A stretch of 31,192 nucleotides of DNA from a virus, in UHGV virus genome UHGV-0019120; one strand, written 5' to 3'. Below, in pieces: positions 4,635 to 30,443 of this stretch. The notes beneath the pieces were generated by a model. It was not told where the DNA came from. It made no database searches and worked only from the letters and a program-made list of their open reading frames with translations. Position 1 is the stretch's first letter; every line of letters begins with the position of its first letter. The position numbers and the translations under genes were made by a program.

Positions 4635-5146
4635 TGATGGCCCCCGTCATTTCTGGTGCTTTTCACCGTGCGGCTTCTTAAAAACCTGCCATCACGAACA
4701 ACAGACACTTCTCGTTTACCCAACCTCATTTCACGGCGGTAACATTCAGAAAATGCCTCGTCCGGCATCATATAAATGCGACGCTTCGCCTCCGTATCCA
4801 GAAGGGAACGGCTTGGGGTTACATATAAGAACGACTCATCAATAGGGACAAAACCACGAGCAAGAATTGCTGGCAGAATACCAGGAAGAACGCAGAAAAC
4901 AGCTCCACGATGCAGCAACATCTGGTACTCCATGACCTCCGTAATCCCCGTAACGACTGTTACGGTGTCACGTCTGTTACGGCTGGCAACCAGTCGCTGC
5001 ACACCTCCAATTTTCTGCTCTACAGATAGACGTTTGCTATCGTTATCAATATGATCGATAACAAATCCTTTAATCGTTTGATCAAGGTAGTGCACCACCT
5101 GCGATTGAATCTGGTGATTATCACCAAAGAAGGCCAGAATCATCAT
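4631..5146 (-). CDS. hypothetical protein
   Basis: 171-aa ORF inside the minus-strand operon; no motif recognised. Confidence 0.45.
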   Translation of the reverse strand: MMILAFFGDNHQIQSQVVHYLDQTIKGFVIDHIDNDSKRLSVEQKIGGVQRLVASRNRRDTVTVVTGITEVMEYQMLLHRGAVFCVLPGILPAILARGFVPIDESFLYVTPSRSLLDTEAKRRIYMMPDEAFSECYRREMRLGKREVSVVRDGRFLRSRTVKSTRNDGGHQ

Positions 5147-5811: not shown

Positions 5812-6468
5812 ATGAAAAGCAACGACGAGAACATCAAGAAAGAAATAGGTCTGCGCATTCAGACTCTACGGAAACAATCCGGCATGACTGCCGGAGATCT
5901 CCAGCAAGTCACTGGAATAGGCTTAAGCACCTTGCAGAACTATGAGGCCGGATTAAGACAACCATCTATACCTGCCATCAAGAAAATCGCGCACGCCCTG
6001 AAAGCATCAGCGCCTTATATCGCGTGCTTAACAGATAACCCGTTCCCACCCCAGAATACTAACGCTCCTGTTATTCCTGGGCTTGTAGCTATAAAAAATG
6101 ACATAGCATCGCACGCCGGAGAAAAGCCAGTGCTGGCGATAGAACAGGAGATTCTACGAAGCAAGAACATCAACCCATCGTCTCTGTCAGTTCTCCAGAG
6201 CAACGATGAGTTAATGTCACCAACAATATCCCCAGGCTCCCAAGTCCTGATTAATACAGACGATACAGAGATTCATGAGGGGATCTATGCCCTTGAAGAC
6301 AGAAATGGCCTGGTTGTTTTGAGGCACTGTAGAGTCATACCGGGTGACAATGCTGTTATGCTGTCAACCGAAAGGGATGCTGAAATGAACACTAAGCATC
6401 TGAATAACGAGGAATTTAAGCGTTATAAAGTTCTTGGCCGCGTAGTTAGTGTTGTCAACTGGTTATGA
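5812..6468 (+). CDS. CI/LexA-type prophage repressor (HTH_XRE plus S24-like C-terminal domain)
   Basis: 218 aa; N-terminal HTH (LRKQSGMTAGDLQQVTGIGLSTLQNYEAG), C-terminal LMSPTISPGSQVLIN and FKRYK...GRVVSVVNWL resembling the LexA/CI Ser-Lys autocleavage domain. Confidence 0.75.
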   Translation: MKSNDENIKKEIGLRIQTLRKQSGMTAGDLQQVTGIGLSTLQNYEAGLRQPSIPAIKKIAHALKASAPYIACLTDNPFPPQNTNAPVIPGLVAIKNDIASHAGEKPVLAIEQEILRSKNINPSSLSVLQSNDELMSPTISPGSQVLINTDDTEIHEGIYALEDRNGLVVLRHCRVIPGDNAVMLSTERDAEMNTKHLNNEEFKRYKVLGRVVSVVNWL

Positions 6469-8252: not shown

Positions 8253-8276
8253 TAAAAAAGGCCCCCGAAGGGGCCT
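8253..8276 (-). terminator. intrinsic terminator for the minus-strand small gene
   Basis: GGCCCC-CGAA-GGGGCC hairpin; A6 on the plus strand gives a U-run on the minus strand. Confidence 0.55.
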
Positions 8277-8281
8277 AATCG

Positions 8282-8404
8282 CTACTTGCTGCTAATGTTT
8301 ATCGTCACATTCAGAGCGTTATCAGTAATCTTCCAACCCTCCCCATGTGGCGTAAACAAAGCCCCAGTAACAACGATAAAAATACACATACAGTATTTTT
8401 TCAT
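8282..8404 (-). CDS. small hydrophobic peptide (about 40 aa)
   Basis: MKKYCMCIFIVVTGALF... with AAGGG RBS and own terminator; track ORF 8282..8464 is longer. Confidence 0.3.
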   Translation of the reverse strand: MKKYCMCIFIVVTGALFTPHGEGWKITDNALNVTINISSK

Positions 8405-8802
8405 TGTATGGCCCTTACAGGCCGTTTCACGGCATCCCCACCGACGAAAACAACGCGAGAGCAAGCACGGCTGCTTGTGCTTGCATGTACGGCAACGGAG
8501 AATCCTCCCCTAAAGTCGGTGCCCGGGTGCGAATCGGCGGGAAGGTCCACAGGTATTTTACGATTATTTTAAGATTAGTAATAGGAAAGAAATTAAACGA
8601 AAAAACTCGTTTATTTTCACAAAATCAGTAACCTACCCACAATCTGTGAGTTTGCAGGCACAACAAGAACCACAATTTTTTGAAGCATAATAGTGGACTA
8701 TTATTACCTTTTGGGTAAAATTAACTTGCTGCTTGTGCTTGCGTGGTTGTTTATACAACGACGTTATGCTGAAAGGACCGCGAATCCGATCAGCACGAAA
8801 GA

Positions 8803-8883: not shown

Positions 8884-8994
8884 GTATTGACATGAATGCG
8901 CCATTGGTGGACACTTTCCGAGCCGTAGCAAAATCTACGGTCGGGATTGGAACCCCGTAGACACAATGGCGCATACCGCGTTAGCGGTTTTTTT
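8884..8994 (+). ncRNA. candidate structured small RNA (c4-like antisense regulator)
   Basis: Extended -10 TGtTAAAAT near 8866-8874; 9-bp outer stem 8898-8906/8964-8972 enclosing two hairpins, one with loop ATTGGAAC; ends at short hairpin plus T7 (8975-8994). No ORF. Confidence 0.35.
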
Positions 8995-9160
8995 ATGCGT
9001 AAAGCACTGCTACACCCAAATTATGGTGGGGCGTGCGGGGGAGTCGTAAGACTCGCCGGTTCGTCATTGTGTCCGGTAGTTCCAACCCTGCACGTCTCAC
9101 CACCCAATGATTGGAACCTGACGGTGGTGAGTATCCTTAACCTTTAAGGGAATCATCACA

Positions 9161-12549: not shown

Positions 12550-12849
12550 TTAGACATGGAACGCTACTCGCTTTCCTGTAGGAAGCTCAACATCCAGGCT
12601 TAATTTGCCTCCCATAGCTTCAACGTAACGCTTTAATGTCGCCAGCTTTAAATCATTTCCGCGCTGCTCCAGCTTTGTTACTGCTGGCTGGCTTATACCC
12701 ATCGCCTCAGCAACCTGTTTTTGTGATAACTGGAGTTCTTCACGCATCATCTGCAAGCCGACCTCAAGAATCATCTCATCTGCCATTTCTTTAATTCGCG
12801 CCTGGCTTTCAGGTGAACGGCAGGCAATCACCTCATCTAATGTTCTCAT
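12550..12849 (-). CDS. HigA-like XRE-family antitoxin
   Basis: 99 aa; HTH LSQKQVAEAMGISQPAVTKLE; start overlaps toxin stop (ATGA at 12846-12849), downstream of the toxin as in HigBA-type modules. Confidence 0.7.
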   Translation of the reverse strand: MRTLDEVIACRSPESQARIKEMADEMILEVGLQMMREELQLSQKQVAEAMGISQPAVTKLEQRGNDLKLATLKRYVEAMGGKLSLDVELPTGKRVAFHV

Positions 12850-13196
12850 TACTTGCTCTCCAGTGTGTTCAGATGTGCTGCAAACTCATCCTCAGCTATA
12901 CGCACCAGTTTTTTATAAAACCGCTTATCGTTACTTTTGTCTCCTGCACAAAGAACGATGGCCCGACGAATCGGATCGAACGCATAAAAGGCTCTTATCG
13001 GACGGCCAGAAAACTGAACGCGAAGCTCTTTCATATTTTTGTACCGAGAACCTTTTACGGTATCGGCATATGGCCTGGGTAACTCAGGTCCGTAAACCTG
13101 TAGATTTTTCAAATCAGCCAAAACCTTTTCCTGAAGAGCCTCTTCTTGCTCATTTAGCCAGTCGTCAAATCGCTGGCTAAAAAGTACCGTCCACAT
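12849..13196 (-). CDS. HigB/RelE-superfamily toxin (Gp49-like)
   Basis: About 116 aa from ATG 13196 (AGGA RBS); the ...YAFDPIRRAIVLCAGDKSNDKRF... C-terminus resembles phage Gp49/HigB-type toxins; track ORF 12849..13316 is longer. Confidence 0.6.
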   Translation of the reverse strand: MWTVLFSQRFDDWLNEQEEALQEKVLADLKNLQVYGPELPRPYADTVKGSRYKNMKELRVQFSGRPIRAFYAFDPIRRAIVLCAGDKSNDKRFYKKLVRIAEDEFAAHLNTLESK

Positions 13197-13440
13197 GCTC
13201 AATCCTATAACCTGTAGTTTATACCACTGACTATATAACCCGTAGGTTATAATTTCAAGAAAAACGGGGCTATTTAACATAATGGACGTTATCGGCACCA
13301 CCGGATCACCGTTCATTGTCGGATCTAAAAAATCCGCTCAAAAGATCATGTTTTCCTGGGCGTTTTCCACCGTTTTTTATGTTGCTTATTTGTTAATGAA
13401 ATCTCGTTTTCAGTTTCGCCTCATTTTCGACGCGAAAGCC

Positions 13441-13731
13441 CTATTTTTGTGACTTTACTCCTGGCATATGGACTTCCCAGCGACGAATCCCCATAGCTGC
13501 GCAAAAATCAGCCACATAATTCAATCCCGCCCATTCGCGGATACCACCACGGGCTTTTTCAATGAAAACGGCAATCCCTTTTTTATTGAGAGCAAAAAGC
13601 CGCCAGCTTTTTGTCACTTCGTCCTGGGTAGCCACAACACAAGTGAAAGCTCCCATGCGATACAGGTCCAAGAACTCTTTGCGTGTTTTGCGTACAAGTT
13701 CCATAACAAACCTCATATTTGCATGTTTCAA
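13441..13731 (-). CDS. hypothetical protein
   Basis: 96 aa; 4-bp overlap with the upstream HTH gene. Confidence 0.4.
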   Translation of the reverse strand: MKHANMRFVMELVRKTRKEFLDLYRMGAFTCVVATQDEVTKSWRLFALNKKGIAVFIEKARGGIREWAGLNYVADFCAAMGIRRWEVHMPGVKSQK

Positions 13732-14027
13732 ACATCTGTTTTGTTATCAATGAAGATTAACCCTAACCCAGCGAAGTAACACAGCAGCGCCCAGGCTGCA
13801 TACGGAATGCTGGATCTGGATGTGGACTCCTTTAACATCTGCCAGTTGCGAACATTGCGACTATCTTTTAAGCCTAGTTTTTTGGCTAACTGCGAGCCGC
13901 TCATTCCGGTCAGGCCAATGACTGCCCGAACTTCTCCACATGTAGGAGATTCCCATTCATCCGCTTTTTTTAAACAAGCCGGATTCAACATTTTTAAAAC
14001 AGTATCTTTATCCATAACCATCTCCAT
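13728..14027 (-). CDS. XRE-type HTH protein with C-terminal hydrophobic segment
   Basis: 99 aa; HTH LTGMSGSQLAKKLGLKDSRNVRNW then a roughly 20-residue hydrophobic stretch IPYAAWALLCYFAGLGLIFI. Confidence 0.45.
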   Translation of the reverse strand: MEMVMDKDTVLKMLNPACLKKADEWESPTCGEVRAVIGLTGMSGSQLAKKLGLKDSRNVRNWQMLKESTSRSSIPYAAWALLCYFAGLGLIFIDNKTDV

Positions 14028-14029
14028 TT

Positions 14030-14658
14030 ATTATATCTACGATGGTAGGAAATCTTTTCCTATGTAGCAATAGAAATTTACTACATTGCGTATAAGACAA
14101 GTTTTCTATGTCTAATAGGAAATGAGGTTTCTTACGTTTTATCGCGTTCTGATGGCTACTGTGTGCGTATTTATCGACGTTTATTGATAAGGCTCGCCCC
14201 TTCCTCCTGCAAAGCCCGGCCGTAGGCCTTATTTCGGCCTTATATAAATTGATTTTGTATAGTTCGAAACGCGCCGTTTCGAAAAGGATGATCAGGCTGC
14301 TCCATGCCTCCGGCAAGTGCCGGAGGAGGTATATTTGAGCGTAGCGACTCGAACCGGCGCGAGCTTTAGCTCGCTGCAAGGGCGAACATATTCACAGGCA
14401 AAGCCTGTGTAAGTTAAATAAAGAAAGTCTTAATAAAAGAAAGTAATTTTGCATTTATTTGTTTAGTGCATCTATTATAAAAAACCATTTGCATATACAT
14501 ATCAAAACTGTGGATAACTTTATTAGCCGATGCCTGTAAAGGCGATATTTTTGCTGTGTTCAGGTTTAGAGAAAATTAATTTAGATTGTTTTTTGAACAG
14601 ATGTTTTATTGCGACGTAGATAATCCTCCGGTAAAACCGGATTCATCATTCAGGTGGG
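14030..14658. other. candidate replication origin (oriR-like) downstream of repA
   Basis: AT-rich tract 14400-14600 with perfect DnaA box TTATCCACA (minus strand, 14509-14517) and a cluster of GC-rich perfect hairpins at 14263-14409. Confidence 0.45.
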
Positions 14659-15639
14659 TTAATGTTGGAGTGATTTCCAGGTCTTTCTTAACCTGTTATA
14701 ACGCTGCTCAACGAGGGATCGTAAATATGCAAGGTCAGCTCCAGGATACATGCCATCAGCAAATTCCTGGCTAACCTCTCTAGTGATTTGATGACGAAGT
14801 TCGGCCTCTCCCTTTTCCCGAACAAGACGCGCAGCTCTCTCCGCTGCTTTCTGTTTTGCCTTTATCTCTCTGGCCGTCTTCCTCTGACGCCATACATTCT
14901 CCATCTGCTCCTGAATAACAATACGCTTATAATCAGCCTCCGTTATCGCTTTTTTAAGCCGTTCGCTATTCCTCGCATTGAAGTAATTAAGTTTCTGGCT
15001 AACCGCACGTCTCCATGCTTGTTCAGTAATACCAACGGTTTCCAGCAGTTGATCACGAATCTCTATTTTCGCAGGCCAATACTGTTTATTCACCCGATCC
15101 CAGCGACGTTCATAATCAATAAAACCTAACGCTTTCAGTTGCGACAACGCCCTTGTACAGCGCGTTATAGACTTGTTCCCAGCTTCGGATACGGTAGACA
15201 GGCCGCAAAAATCAGACAACGCCTCAGCACTGGCCAGAACCCGCTTAGAAATGATGTTTACATGGTACAACATCGCAGCAATCAGAGCATTAAACGCCCG
15301 ACGACGATGTTCGTTTATCCGGCGTTTCCGCTCTGACGGTTGATTAACGTAGAACGCAACCTCACACGTAAGATCACGACCATTAATGCGCTGTAAAGCA
15401 TCAGATAACACCAGCGGCAGCTTGTGCGTATGGCGCTTTGGAGGCTGGAACTCCGGCGACAAATTACAAACGTAAGCTGAACGTAGAGACGGCATTGGTC
15501 TATCCATATGTTCGCTCTTGCGTCCACGGAAAACCAACGTATAATGGGAGTTGTCGAGGCGCCCATGGATTGTTGTTGTTGGTTTTCCGTGGATGTCGCA
15601 AGAAGCCCGCAGATTTATCTGCGGGCTTTTTGTTTCCAT
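14659..15639 (-). CDS. repA: IncFII-type plasmid replication initiator RepA
   Basis: Central LSTVSEAGNKSITRCTRALSQLKALGFIDY closely parallels R100/R1 RepA1 as I recall it; Arg/Lys-rich coiled C-terminus also similar. Start uncertain: ATG 15639 or internal ATG 15507. Confidence 0.75.
   Translation of the reverse strand: METKSPQINLRASCDIHGKPTTTIHGRLDNSHYTLVFRGRKSEHMDRPMPSLRSAYVCNLSPEFQPPKRHTHKLPLVLSDALQRINGRDLTCEVAFYVNQPSERKRRINEHRRRAFNALIAAMLYHVNIISKRVLASAEALSDFCGLSTVSEAGNKSITRCTRALSQLKALGFIDYERRWDRVNKQYWPAKIEIRDQLLETVGITEQAWRRAVSQKLNYFNARNSERLKKAITEADYKRIVIQEQMENVWRQRKTAREIKAKQKAAERAARLVREKGEAELRHQITREVSQEFADGMYPGADLAYLRSLVEQRYNRLRKTWKSLQH
15520..15635 (+). ncRNA. candidate antisense copy-control RNA (CopA-like) opposite the repA 5' region
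   Basis: 15-17-bp perfect inverted repeat (15524-15538 / 15578-15592) then a strong plus-strand intrinsic terminator (15603-15632); no plus-strand coding potential. Promoter not identified. Confidence 0.35.
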
Positions 15640-15690: not shown

Positions 15691-16105
15691 TTTACGAGAA
15701 CTCTACCACAACACTTTCGGTCATGCACGAAGTCTCTCACTGATCGAACGATAATCCACCAGTAAAAGGATCTAAATTGGATCTCGTTTTGCGAGCATCA
15801 TACTACTGGCCTAACTCCAGTCAATGATTCCCAGCCAGAAACCTGCGGTAAACTCATCGTTCAGCAATATGCTGTCCGGCTTCAAAGATAAGGTGACATC
15901 ATCCCTTAACAGCGCGGCCAGTTCAGTTAAAGGGCTGTTCTGATTTAATGCTGGCCACTCATACCTGGTAATAAGTGGTCAGTCTTAACACTCACCATTT
16001 GATTGCACCCGTGTTGACGATTTGTTACTGGATATCAGACACGCTGGATAGCCAGTAGAAACATACCATTAAAATTATTACAATAATTGGTCACATGATT
16101 ATCTT

Positions 16106-16669
16106 ATGCTGAATAATAAAGATATGAATATTAATGAACTTAAAGACTGTATTCACTATGAAGTAATCGGTAGCGAGCGTCCTTTCTCCTGGCGAAAGGC
16201 AATTGTTCGCGCAATAAAACATAGAAGGGTTCGTTATTTATTTTGGTGGCGCATAGCCAAATACCTTTTTGATAAAGGCGGATACTGTCGGAAGATTGCG
16301 GGAAAAATAGAACGTTTCATTCTTGATAAATATAATGTAACAGTCCCTTTAACTGTAAATATAGGGAAAGGCTTTGATATTTCTTATCTCAACAGTGTTG
16401 TTATCGGTCACAAAGTAACAATCGGTGAAAATTGTTCAATTAAGCCCGGAGTAACTATTGGACTTCGCGGGGAATTTAATGATATGGATATTGTTATAGG
16501 GCATAATGTGACCATTGGTTGTAATGCCACCATTCTTGGTGGCAAAGTGCGTATAGGAAACAATGTCACAATAGGTGCTCATGCATTGGTATTGCATGAT
16601 ATTCCTGATGATTCAACATTCATCACTAAATTTCAGTCTGAAGTTATCTGCTCGTCCTCCCGAACATAA
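16106..16669 (+). CDS. hexapeptide-repeat (left-handed beta-helix) acyl/acetyltransferase
   Basis: 187 aa; repeated [LIV]-G-x-x-x-x-I-G hexapeptides; only plus-strand gene next to the tail module; 3' end overlaps the convergent fibre assembly gene. Confidence 0.6.
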
Positions 16670-29957: not shown

Positions 29958-30443
29958 TTAGATAAACTCCTGAGACTGAATATTCTGAGGCTTTAATACT
30001 AGCCACGTTCCAGTTGCTTCCGTTATCCAATATGGATATGGTTGATCATCAAACATTCGCCATCTGATATCACCCTGAAAGAGAAATTTCTCTTCAAGTA
30101 AAGGCTTCTCCTGAAAATGAAACATCATCCTTTCAAGAAGAGCCATTACCCATTCATATCCAGTATGGTCCTCACAAAAACCACCTAGAAGAAACTTAAC
30201 CTTAACTTCATCCGTTTCAGGCTGCATTCCTCCTTCCGTGGGCCTGATAATCACATGAGGAAATTCTGGCGGTTTATCTGGAGATGGTTGTGATTTAGGA
30301 GGCAAGTACCCTTTAAATATTGTTGGAACAAACAATTTAATATCGCTGTCTGTTTCATCATAAGGAGGCCCCTGCACTAATAAATCATGGAAAACCTCAT
30401 GTTCCAACCGATTTTTTATTGCATCTATCAAAAGATTAATCAA
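29958..30443 (-). CDS. hypothetical virion protein (possible tail completion/neck)
   Basis: 161 aa; assignment by position only. Confidence 0.4.
   Translation of the reverse strand: MINLLIDAIKNRLEHEVFHDLLVQGPPYDETDSDIKLFVPTIFKGYLPPKSQPSPDKPPEFPHVIIRPTEGGMQPETDEVKVKFLLGGFCEDHTGYEWVMALLERMMFHFQEKPLLEEKFLFQGDIRWRMFDDQPYPYWITEATGTWLVLKPQNIQSQEFI

Follow-up and report, generated by a model that had tools for sequence, protein, structure and literature searches.

The window analysed here is the whole 31,192-nucleotide (nt) stretch of the virus genome UHGV-0019120. It carries on its minus strand a repA gene of the IncFII family, and the interval that follows this gene (14196-14658) is, judged by its sequence, very probably the vegetative origin region of an IncFII-family replicon on a phage-plasmid, with the layout of R1 and R100. 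Four hairpins lie next to the origin, and the reading that we favour, to which we would give a probability of about 0.6, is that an IncFII-type origin is joined here by a neighbouring signal for priming on the single strand, the activity of the origin, the direction of replication and priming at a CTG being predictions from sequence. The window is a member of a family of ~47-49-kb circular elements, 98-99% identical to E. coli plasmids and to the Yersinia phages vB_YpM_39, 41 and 44; as it encodes both tail-fibre genes and a P1-type C4 antisense RNA, it can be regarded as a phage-plasmid. The features of the region, read from repA towards lower coordinates, are as follows (L numbers are our own designations for the sequences compared, L004 being R100; bp, base pairs).

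14659-15639, minus strand: repA, IncFII-family replication initiator (Pfam PF02387 IncFII_repA, E = 6.1e-45, residues 53-319)
14518-14658, minus strand: CIS-like spacer from repA to the origin, with the hairpin TCCGG-TTTTA-CCGGA at 14627-14641 and the motif GTTCAAAAAAC at 14588-14598
14509-14517, minus strand: DnaA box TTATCCACA, on the edge of the origin nearest repA, aligning with the R100 oriR box (L004 5847-5855)
14451-14494, minus strand: three (A/G)ATGCA repeats, ATGCAAAT at 14487-14494, GATGCAC at 14466-14472 and AATGCAAAA at about 14447-14455
14410-14450, no strand: AT-rich tract, presumed DNA-unwinding element, with two direct 15-nt repeats (family D1) at 14414-14428 and 14430-14444
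14393-14409, plus strand: hairpin D, CACAGGC-AAA-GCCTGTG, perfect, with a covarying stem
14388-14396, plus strand: DnaA-box-like 9-mer ATATTCACA, an 8/9 match to TTATNCACA, sharing 4 nt with the 5' arm of hairpin D
14351-14384, plus strand: block 1, the conserved 34-nt core, made up of GAACCGGC, hairpin C and then CTGCAAGGGCG, with the CTG at 14374-14376
14359-14374, plus strand: hairpin C, GCGAGC-TTTA-GCTCGC, a perfect stem with 6-nt arms inside block 1
14339-14345, plus strand only: mini-hairpin motif GCGTAGC of the d(GCGNAGC) type, 14 nt from hairpin C (GCGTAGC, GCGAAGC or GCGGAGC in relatives)
14307-14326, plus strand: hairpin B, CCTCCGGC-AAGT-GCCGGAGG, with 44 variants among relatives and covarying stems
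14263-14283, plus strand: hairpin A, TTCGAAACG-CGC-CGTTTCGAA, perfect, 9 bp with a 3-nt loop
14196-14228, plus strand: block 2, GCCCCTTCCTCCTGCAAAGCC followed by the hairpin GGCC-GTA-GGCC at 14218-14228, with a CTG at 14207-14209

The open reading frame (ORF) at 14659-15639 encodes 326 amino acids and is annotated as "plasmid replication initiator RepA" in plasmids that are 98.9% identical. As the Pfam match starts at residue 53 and the RepA proteins of relatives are 277-313 amino acids long, the true start of repA is probably internal, near 15507. RepA1 of R100 has ~37% identity to the RepA of the window in a 94-residue local match (tblastn). IncFII RepA works in cis, its origin following directly after its own gene, and replication of the R1 type proceeds away from repA.

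The sequence that follows repA1 in R100 (NC_002134) was aligned with that of the window and of five diverged plasmids identified with BLAST (Salmonella, Pantoea, Serratia and two of E. coli), whose RepA proteins are 25-83% identical to that of the window. A single order of elements is common to all of them: the repA stop, a hairpin (T)CCGG...CCGGAGG, GTTCAAAAAAC, the DnaA box, ATGCA/TGCAA repeats, an AT-rich tract with a TTTCTTTTA motif that is kept in relatives, and then hairpins. The spacer hairpin and GTTCAAAAAAC align with AATCCGGCCTGCGCCGGAGG and CACAAAAAATC in R100 as well as with other IncFII-family plasmids, and the distance from the repA stop to the DnaA box, 142 nt in the window and 177 nt in R100, ends in the same alignment columns. 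Further along, the family alignment keeps ATGCAAATGG, AGATGCA and TA(A/G)ATGC columns where R100 shows TGCAA motifs, and on this basis the (A/G)ATGCA repeats of the window are candidate RepA-binding sites. The likeness to R1/R100 oriR therefore takes in the Pfam family of the initiator, an origin placed after a ~140-180-nt spacer that opens with a CCGG..CCGGAGG hairpin, and a consensus DnaA box at the repA-proximal edge followed by TGCA-containing motifs and an AT-rich tract, in that order. In R1 the 188-bp oriR near repA contains a consensus DnaA box, with RepA bound directly downstream of the box, and supports unidirectional theta replication (PMC5883639).

The first-pass annotation had proposed an IncFII-like origin downstream of repA from a perfect DnaA box in an AT-rich tract, and had named comparison with R1/R100 oriR as a check. 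The box is indeed the only perfect match (TTATCCACA) in the 31-kb window, the GC content around it is low (23% in 14400-14499 and 30-33% in 14450-14649), and the comparison, in which the order of elements and the position of the box are common to R100 and the five diverged plasmids, bears out the placement. One part of that description does not hold, as the hairpins were said to lie upstream of the box; repA is on the minus strand, so that in replicon terms they lie downstream of it, the order being repA, box, AT-rich tract, hairpins. Boxes with one mismatch number 8 in the window where 8.2 would be expected by chance, and weight can thus be placed only on the perfect box and its position; in the same column the five other replicons have boxes with up to 2-3 mismatches. 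It could be argued from such numbers that the region is not an origin at all, that the box is there by chance or has a regulatory role, and that the true start of replication is at another place, such as upstream of repA or at a lytic origin of the phage. A perfect 9-mer has a chance of about 0.2 of occurring somewhere in 62 kb of two-strand sequence, and an element that is also a phage may hold a separate lytic origin. The box is, however, homologous in position to the oriR boxes of R100 and five IncFII-family plasmids, within a common motif order and next to an AT-rich tract, and the action of RepA in cis just downstream of its gene is established knowledge, covered in part by PMC5883639, which makes this alternative very improbable. 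It is the comparison with relatives, by repA family, box position and common element order, that leads to the assignment of an IncFII-type origin, and we locate the origin at about 14380-14520 with high confidence.

The four perfect hairpins that had been noticed between 14263 and 14409 are where they were described, although hairpin B, with 9-nt arms (CCTCCGGCA/TGCCGGAGG) separated by 2 nt, is effectively a stem of 8 bp with a 4-nt loop. When 14196-14412 is folded as single-stranded DNA the energy is -45.1 kcal/mol, compared to -31.6 +/- 3.3 kcal/mol in 200 dinucleotide-preserving shuffles (z = -4.1, with 0/200 as good), and hairpins A, B, C and D, with no others, make up the centroid structure. 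Compensatory changes (GGCGAAAAG-CGC-CTTTTCGC) preserve hairpin A in one diverged class of relatives. At the position of hairpin D a DnaA box with up to two mismatches is found in 44 of 47 representative relatives, as against about 10% of shuffles; six relatives have a perfect match to TTATNCACA there, four of these six being TTATCCACA.

The earlier annotation had left two possibilities for the hairpins, that they are part of the origin structure or that they belong to an inserted REP/MITE-like element, and the distribution of the sequence speaks to both. The 231-nt hairpin interval is found at 76 places, all on plasmids, with a median of one and at most two per genome that bears it, and at no chromosomal place in 5,426 complete E. 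coli genomes. With plasmids of other genera only a ~50-nt piece is in common (window 14334-14387), always about 270-360 nt beyond an IncFII-family repA. Block 1 lies beside such a repA in plasmids of Salmonella, Pantoea, Serratia, E. coli and Klebsiella, and at least 120 metagenome loci were found with the pattern GAACCGGCGC-N10-14-GCTGCAAGGGCG, taken from the flanks of the ~50-nt piece. A looser scan of contigs with GCAGCG-N-GCGYCGGTTCG gave mostly chance matches in GC-rich genomes and was useful only for loci of Mixta and Erwinia. RepA is recognisable at 104 of 138 loci, and at every one of these 104 it is on the opposite strand, on the same side and 278-490 nt from block 1; loci at which no RepA match was obtained mostly end within about 500 nt of block 1. 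This placement persists down to RepA proteins that are only 25-37% identical to that of the window. The DNA of block 1 is thus better conserved than the initiator protein, which suggests that its partner is probably not RepA but a factor of the host. More than 4,300 plasmid records contain a match to the commonest version of the region, and in 2,898 of these the match covers 80% or more of that version; the matching records include 2,911 from Klebsiella, 522 from Salmonella and 94 from Yersinia, as well as others.

A host repeat of the REP/ERIC/MITE type, inserted here and unrelated to replication, would account for a cluster that is GC-rich and palindromic in an AT-rich intergenic setting, and also for the clean absence of the ~50-nt block 1 between otherwise colinear flanks in R100, which resembles an insertion or deletion event. 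It does not account for sequences that occur on plasmids only, usually in one copy, in one orientation and at a set distance from IncFII-family repA at all 104 loci with a RepA match, nor for their conservation across replicons with such divergent initiators, and neither terminal inverted repeats nor target duplications can be seen flanking the cluster. The host repeat is contradicted by these plasmid-only single copies in a fixed context beside repA, and we consider it scarcely credible; the constant position and orientation of the core relative to repA fit the other possibility, that of origin structure.

Alignment of the hairpins in relatives indicates that it is the folded form that is maintained. 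Hairpin C occurs in 30 variants with 8 perfectly complementary stem types (10 arm combinations), and 177 of the 179 pairs are Watson-Crick. It always starts with GCG and ends with CGC, while the three inner pairs change together and include ACC/GGT, AGC/GCT, GAC/GTC, ACG/CGT, GCC/GGC, AAC/GTT, GCG/CGC and GGC/GCC; across 47 representatives 99.6% of its helix is paired, and 3 of the 6 pairs show compensatory changes. For hairpins B, C and D together, 84.9% of cells are paired in the 47 aligned representatives, compared to 75.7% in shuffles and 35-51% when the partners are slid, and the covariation score is 0.319; shuffles give 0.181, with none of 500 as high, and slid partners no more than 0.136.

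The question of which strand folds can be addressed by features that differ between the two. Loops of the form GN(N)A are present in hairpin C in 15 of the 30 variants when read on the plus strand and in none when read on the minus strand; among 38 representatives at or below 85% identity, the plus strand has 38 GCGN(N)AGC motifs and the minus strand 2; and the wobble pairs of hairpin B in relatives are 24 G.T pairs on the plus strand compared to 3 A.C pairs. Both d(GCGNAGC) and d(GCGNNAGC) are exceptionally stable DNA mini-hairpins, and loop motifs of this kind are found in hairpin I of primase origins, in G4 (GCGAAAGC) and in St-1 and alpha3 (GCGTTAGC) (PMC13037366). The pattern points to a hairpin module that would act as a folded single strand, namely the plus strand of the window. 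This conserved, strand-specific, CTG-bearing hairpin module, which is absent from the origin of R1/R100, is what the region adds to an ordinary IncFII-type origin.

The cluster could also consist of transcription signals, that is terminators, insulators or 3'-end stabilisers that block read-through from repA or shield the origin from transcription nearby, working either as RNA or through an effect on RNA polymerase. The hairpins are indeed flanked by repA and, on the same strand, by the following gene (ORF 13728-14027), hairpin B was flagged as terminator-like on the plus strand by a scan, and wobble pairs of the G.U type together with GNRA-like loops would also suit a plus-sense RNA. Against this, no proper T run follows any hairpin on the repA-sense strand, and the sole terminator call, on the plus strand, has no gene reading into it from the left and has a weak tail (AGGTATATTT); the two terminator calls of the window scan, with 0.9 expected, amount to no enrichment. 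The promoter scan found no promoter-like site, and a search of Rfam gave no match in the hairpin cluster, either at gathering level or at E up to 1. The loops GTCA, GTTA and GTA obey the DNA mini-hairpin rule and not that of GNRA, and the same core is present in non-coding leading-region DNA (see below) in the template-strand sense. Transcription signals are on this evidence an improbable explanation of the cluster.

A role in priming is suggested by what follows hairpin C. On the plus strand of the window hairpins A, B and C lie inside 112 nt and are directly followed by CTG-CAAGGGCG (CTG at 14374-14376), hairpin D and the AT-rich tract. In phage G4 the start of priming is the T of a CTG that lies 3' of three stem-loops, and needs only primase and the protein that binds single-stranded DNA (SSB) (PMC6783573); the G4 sequence reads ...GGACGGCGAAAGCCGCCGTCC-CTA-CTG-CAAAG. 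The two are alike in having three stem-loops within about 110 nt, a CTG 3' of them and then CAA(A)G (CTGCAAAG), in the stable GNA/GNNA mini-hairpin motifs on the template strand (in the module of the window and in relatives) and in that a primer would traverse the hairpins, leading away from the unwound origin. They differ in that the CTG of the window overlaps the last pair of the hairpin C stem, whereas the CTG of G4 is 3-4 nt beyond stem-loop I. Block 2 offers a further likeness, as CCTCCTGCAAAGCC at 14203-14216 agrees at 13 of 14 positions with the G4 primer start CCTACTGCAAAGCC, a borderline match (z = 3.5) in that the top shuffle score, 23, equals the observed one; 10 diverse replicons and the par region of pSC101 all retain the block 2 motif CCCC-Y(n)-CTGC-N-AG. 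Hairpin D, at the edge of the AT-rich tract and with its DnaA-box-like 9-mer, resembles the A-site of the ABC primosome, which is a single-stranded hairpin duplex containing a DnaA site (PMC3737561), but the box of the window is an 8/9 match and only partly inside the stem.

Taken by analogy with these systems, initiation might run as follows. RepA, aided by DnaA, would open the AT-rich tract, DnaB would be loaded there and would unwind away from repA, toward lower coordinates, and the plus strand of the window would thereby become the displaced leading-strand template. Once single-stranded, it would be expected to fold into hairpins A-D and the small GNA-loop hairpins, which would exclude SSB, and DnaG primase would then start the leading strand at the CTG abutting hairpin C, opposite T14375, with the primer extended away from repA. 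A second primase start might be provided by the G4-like CCTCCTGCAAAG at 14203-14214, and the weak DnaA box of hairpin D may serve as a second DnaA contact or as a helicase-loading hairpin of the A-site type. In R1 the leading strand is reportedly begun by primase at a G4-like "G-site" downstream of oriR, as Masai and Arai in 1989 and Bernander et al. in 1992 are said to have found; the site in the window differs in that it abuts the AT-rich tract and is not several hundred bp off. We would place the role of the module as a leading-strand priming signal slightly on the favourable side of even.

A number of points weigh against such a role. Local alignment of the G4 origin with the window, R100 and relatives yielded short matches only, and the block 1 regions reach z = 0-2, with no significant likeness beyond CTGCAA; nhmmer with the family profile found nothing in G4. 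The sequence CTGCAAGGGCG was itself within the metagenome search pattern, so its invariance at those loci is partly by construction; the CTG is also retained in six relatives found by BLAST, outside that search. The counts of motif variants given above are uncorrected for shared ancestry, and the hairpin loops of the window itself (CGC, AAGT, TTTA and AAA) are not of the GNNA type, only GCGTAGC and GGCC-GTA-GGCC fitting the rule. The plus strand folds better than the minus in 35 of 37 representatives, yet composition explains this, as the advantage of ~3.8 kcal/mol is equalled by the -3.7 kcal/mol of shuffles (p = 0.76); because the shuffles reproduce the difference, strand asymmetry of folding energy was rejected as evidence. 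The ~50-nt block 1 is absent between hairpins B and D of R100, by alignment and by motif search, and R100 is the experimentally studied model, in which leading-strand priming takes place several hundred bp farther away. Finally, the IncFII(K)-like relatives L007-L009 have beside block 1 a segment with 92% identity, over 57-61 nt, to positions 4853-4913 of pSC101, which brings in a different function.

The pSC101 segment, which in the pairing of E. coli p5E44 (L008 2443-2499) with pSC101 (L141 2501-2561) has this 92% identity, sits between a traD-like gene and the pSC101 origin. Gyrase binds to the par locus of pSC101, which promotes replication through an increase in superhelicity at the origin (PMC5043065; PMC6379681). 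It is thus conceivable that the origin has been correctly identified and that the hairpin module is a duplex, par-like gyrase site that aids opening of the AT-rich tract via negative supercoiling and has no part in priming. Both modules flank an origin in the same orientation to the AT-rich tract, and both are non-coding, rich in hairpins and in possession of a CCCC..CTGC.AG motif and of a segment AAAAGGA.T.TTCAG...CCCG-loop-CGGG, the latter diverged in the window. Block 2 (CCCC..CTGCCAG) is present in pSC101 too, the window keeping a diverged version that consists of AAAAGGATGATCAG, hairpin B and block 2, and gyrase is also known to prefer the palindromic BIME repeats (PMC6379681). On the other side, the best-conserved part of the module, block 1 with hairpin C and CTGCAAGGGCG, is absent from pSC101, which has an unrelated initiator and for which the documented activity is gyrase binding on duplex DNA. 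A site bound as duplex does not predict compensatory changes in stems whose sequence is otherwise free, nor the 38:2 strand bias of the GCGN(N)AGC motifs, and it leaves unexplained the copies on the transferred single strand of the R100 leading region described below; overlap of the par cleavage site with the homologous segment is moreover only a presumption. We regard a gyrase site in place of a priming signal as unlikely, but the two functions could coexist, and the par-like part of the module may be a gyrase site. A review calls par unique to pSC101 (PMC5043065), and the similarity suggests, at the level of sequence, that it is not. Small ColE10-typed MOBQ plasmids also carry a pSC101-par-like segment.

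To return to a priming signal beside an IncFII-type origin, the absence of block 1 from R100 can be considered together with what R100 carries elsewhere. R100 has equivalents of hairpins B and D beyond its AT-rich tract, hairpin B being CCCGCCGC-TT-GCGGTGGG, and it is colinear with relatives that have 70-79% identical RepA through two inverted Ter sites, hairpin B, hairpin D, the AT-rich tract and the DnaA box. What differs is that the window has the 34-nt block 1, hairpin C with CTGCAAGGGCG, between hairpins B and D where R100 does not, the gap lying at about 6030-6036 of L004 in comparison with L143, L165, L156 and L049. In those block-1-bearing relatives a distal conserved element reads TACCAG or TACTAA, as against TACTG in R100. 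The two inverted Ter-like sites, (T/C)TGTAACTA, are found in R100 and its close relatives just beyond hairpin B (L004 about 6060-6075 and 6209-6230); a search of the window for Ter (Tus) sites gave matches at chance level and none near the origin. The published G-site of R100 we take to be one of two sequences on the template strand, at about 6265-6310 of L004 (GCGTTAGC...GTCA loop...TACTG) or at about 6423-6450 (CCGGC-GTAA-GCCGG-TACTG). R1/R100 also differ in the host element, the origin of the window being on a phage-plasmid and not on a conjugative plasmid.

A profile of the module has three weak matches elsewhere in R100, and as an exact motif, GCG-NNN-loop-NNN'-CGCTGCAA with complementary arms, there are 3 copies where 0.003 would be expected. 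These copies, GCGACC-loop-GGTCGC-TGCAA on the minus strand of NC_002134.1 at 30103-30124, 33409-33430 and 47982-48003, all fall within the leading region for conjugation, on the strand that serves ssb and psiB as template, which is taken to be the transferred single strand. The surrounding 111 nt form a leading-region element that no fewer than 5,000 plasmids carry, usually 2-3 times. The copy near ssb is roughly 200 nt from a Frpo-like long stem-loop at 33620-33700; Frpo1 and Frpo2 have been described in the leading region of F-like plasmids (PMC9849209), and differ from the hairpin-C core in that Frpo, a long stem-loop, imitates for RNA polymerase a promoter of the -35/-10 kind, while the core is a separate short hairpin outside it. 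A hairpin-CTGCAA core on DNA that is by necessity single-stranded gives independent support for a single-strand function.

These observations allow a broader proposal, which we put forward tentatively and would ourselves bet against at present odds, that the hairpin-C-CTGCAAG core and its flanking hairpins are a widespread and hitherto uncharacterised module of enterobacterial mobile elements for single-strand priming, or for the recruitment of helicase or primase. Such a module would have been reused next to the unwinding tract in most origins of the IncFII family (thousands of plasmids of Klebsiella, Salmonella and Yersinia, and the phage-plasmid of the window), in part in the par locus of pSC101, and two or three times over near Frpo, on the strand that F-like leading regions transfer, a scheme of reuse that is equally speculative. 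It would follow in this scheme, and is no better than a possibility of the same order, that R1/R100 have lost their origin-proximal copy. Such a loss would explain both why the module has gone unnoticed and why the leading strand of R1 starts far from oriR.

The surroundings of the origin include several other features. Beyond block 2, where the similarity among families ends, lies a region that we would set apart from the origin:

14030-14195, minus strand: upstream region of ORF 13728-14027, with repeats D3, I5, I6 and I18

Within it, 14046-14125 contains a direct repeat TAGGAAAT (at 14046 and 14116) with nested inverted repeats that look operator-like and are probably regulatory for ORF 13728-14027, outside the origin. 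At 12550-13316 on the minus strand a Gp49/HigB-like toxin (PF05973) overlaps a helix-turn-helix antitoxin, the labels in relatives being RelE/ParE-family and helix-turn-helix domain protein, and this toxin-antitoxin pair near the origin is likely to be a plasmid-addiction module. On the other side of the origin, the plus strand at 15522-15635 has a terminator-like stem-loop with sub-threshold Rfam matches (Thr_leader at 31 bits; the 3' end of CsrC at E = 3e-4). This structure, which lies in antisense direction opposite the 5' part of the repA ORF, may be an antisense RNA similar to CopA; for antisense-RNA control of the CopA type upstream of repA no Rfam family reached threshold. Rfam matches at gathering level indicate a P1-like immunity region, with ryfA at 8254-8550 (minus strand), isrK at 8922-8994 (plus) and a P1/P7-type C4 at 9019-9107 (plus). 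Similarity to the Yersinia phages and some plasmids ends at ~15852, where these carry a hin-type DNA invertase; the window and other plasmids have a hexapeptide-repeat transferase at 16106-16669 instead, which makes ~15853-16669 a variable cassette beside the tail-fibre genes. In the public records examined no annotated feature lies under the match to the origin region.

The analysis places the vegetative origin of a common ~47-kb family of phage-plasmids of E. coli and Yersinia. The core of a hairpin and CTG, ~34 nt in length, spans the IncFII family, including the clinically dominant IncFII(K) plasmids of Klebsiella as well as plasmids of Salmonella and of Yersinia, and the textbook mechanism for this family rests on R1/R100, the model origin in which block 1 is missing. 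If the core is indeed a start signal for the leading strand, it would provide a concrete site for how such plasmids begin DNA synthesis, and would tie the vegetative initiation of replication to the synthesis of the complementary strand that follows conjugation.

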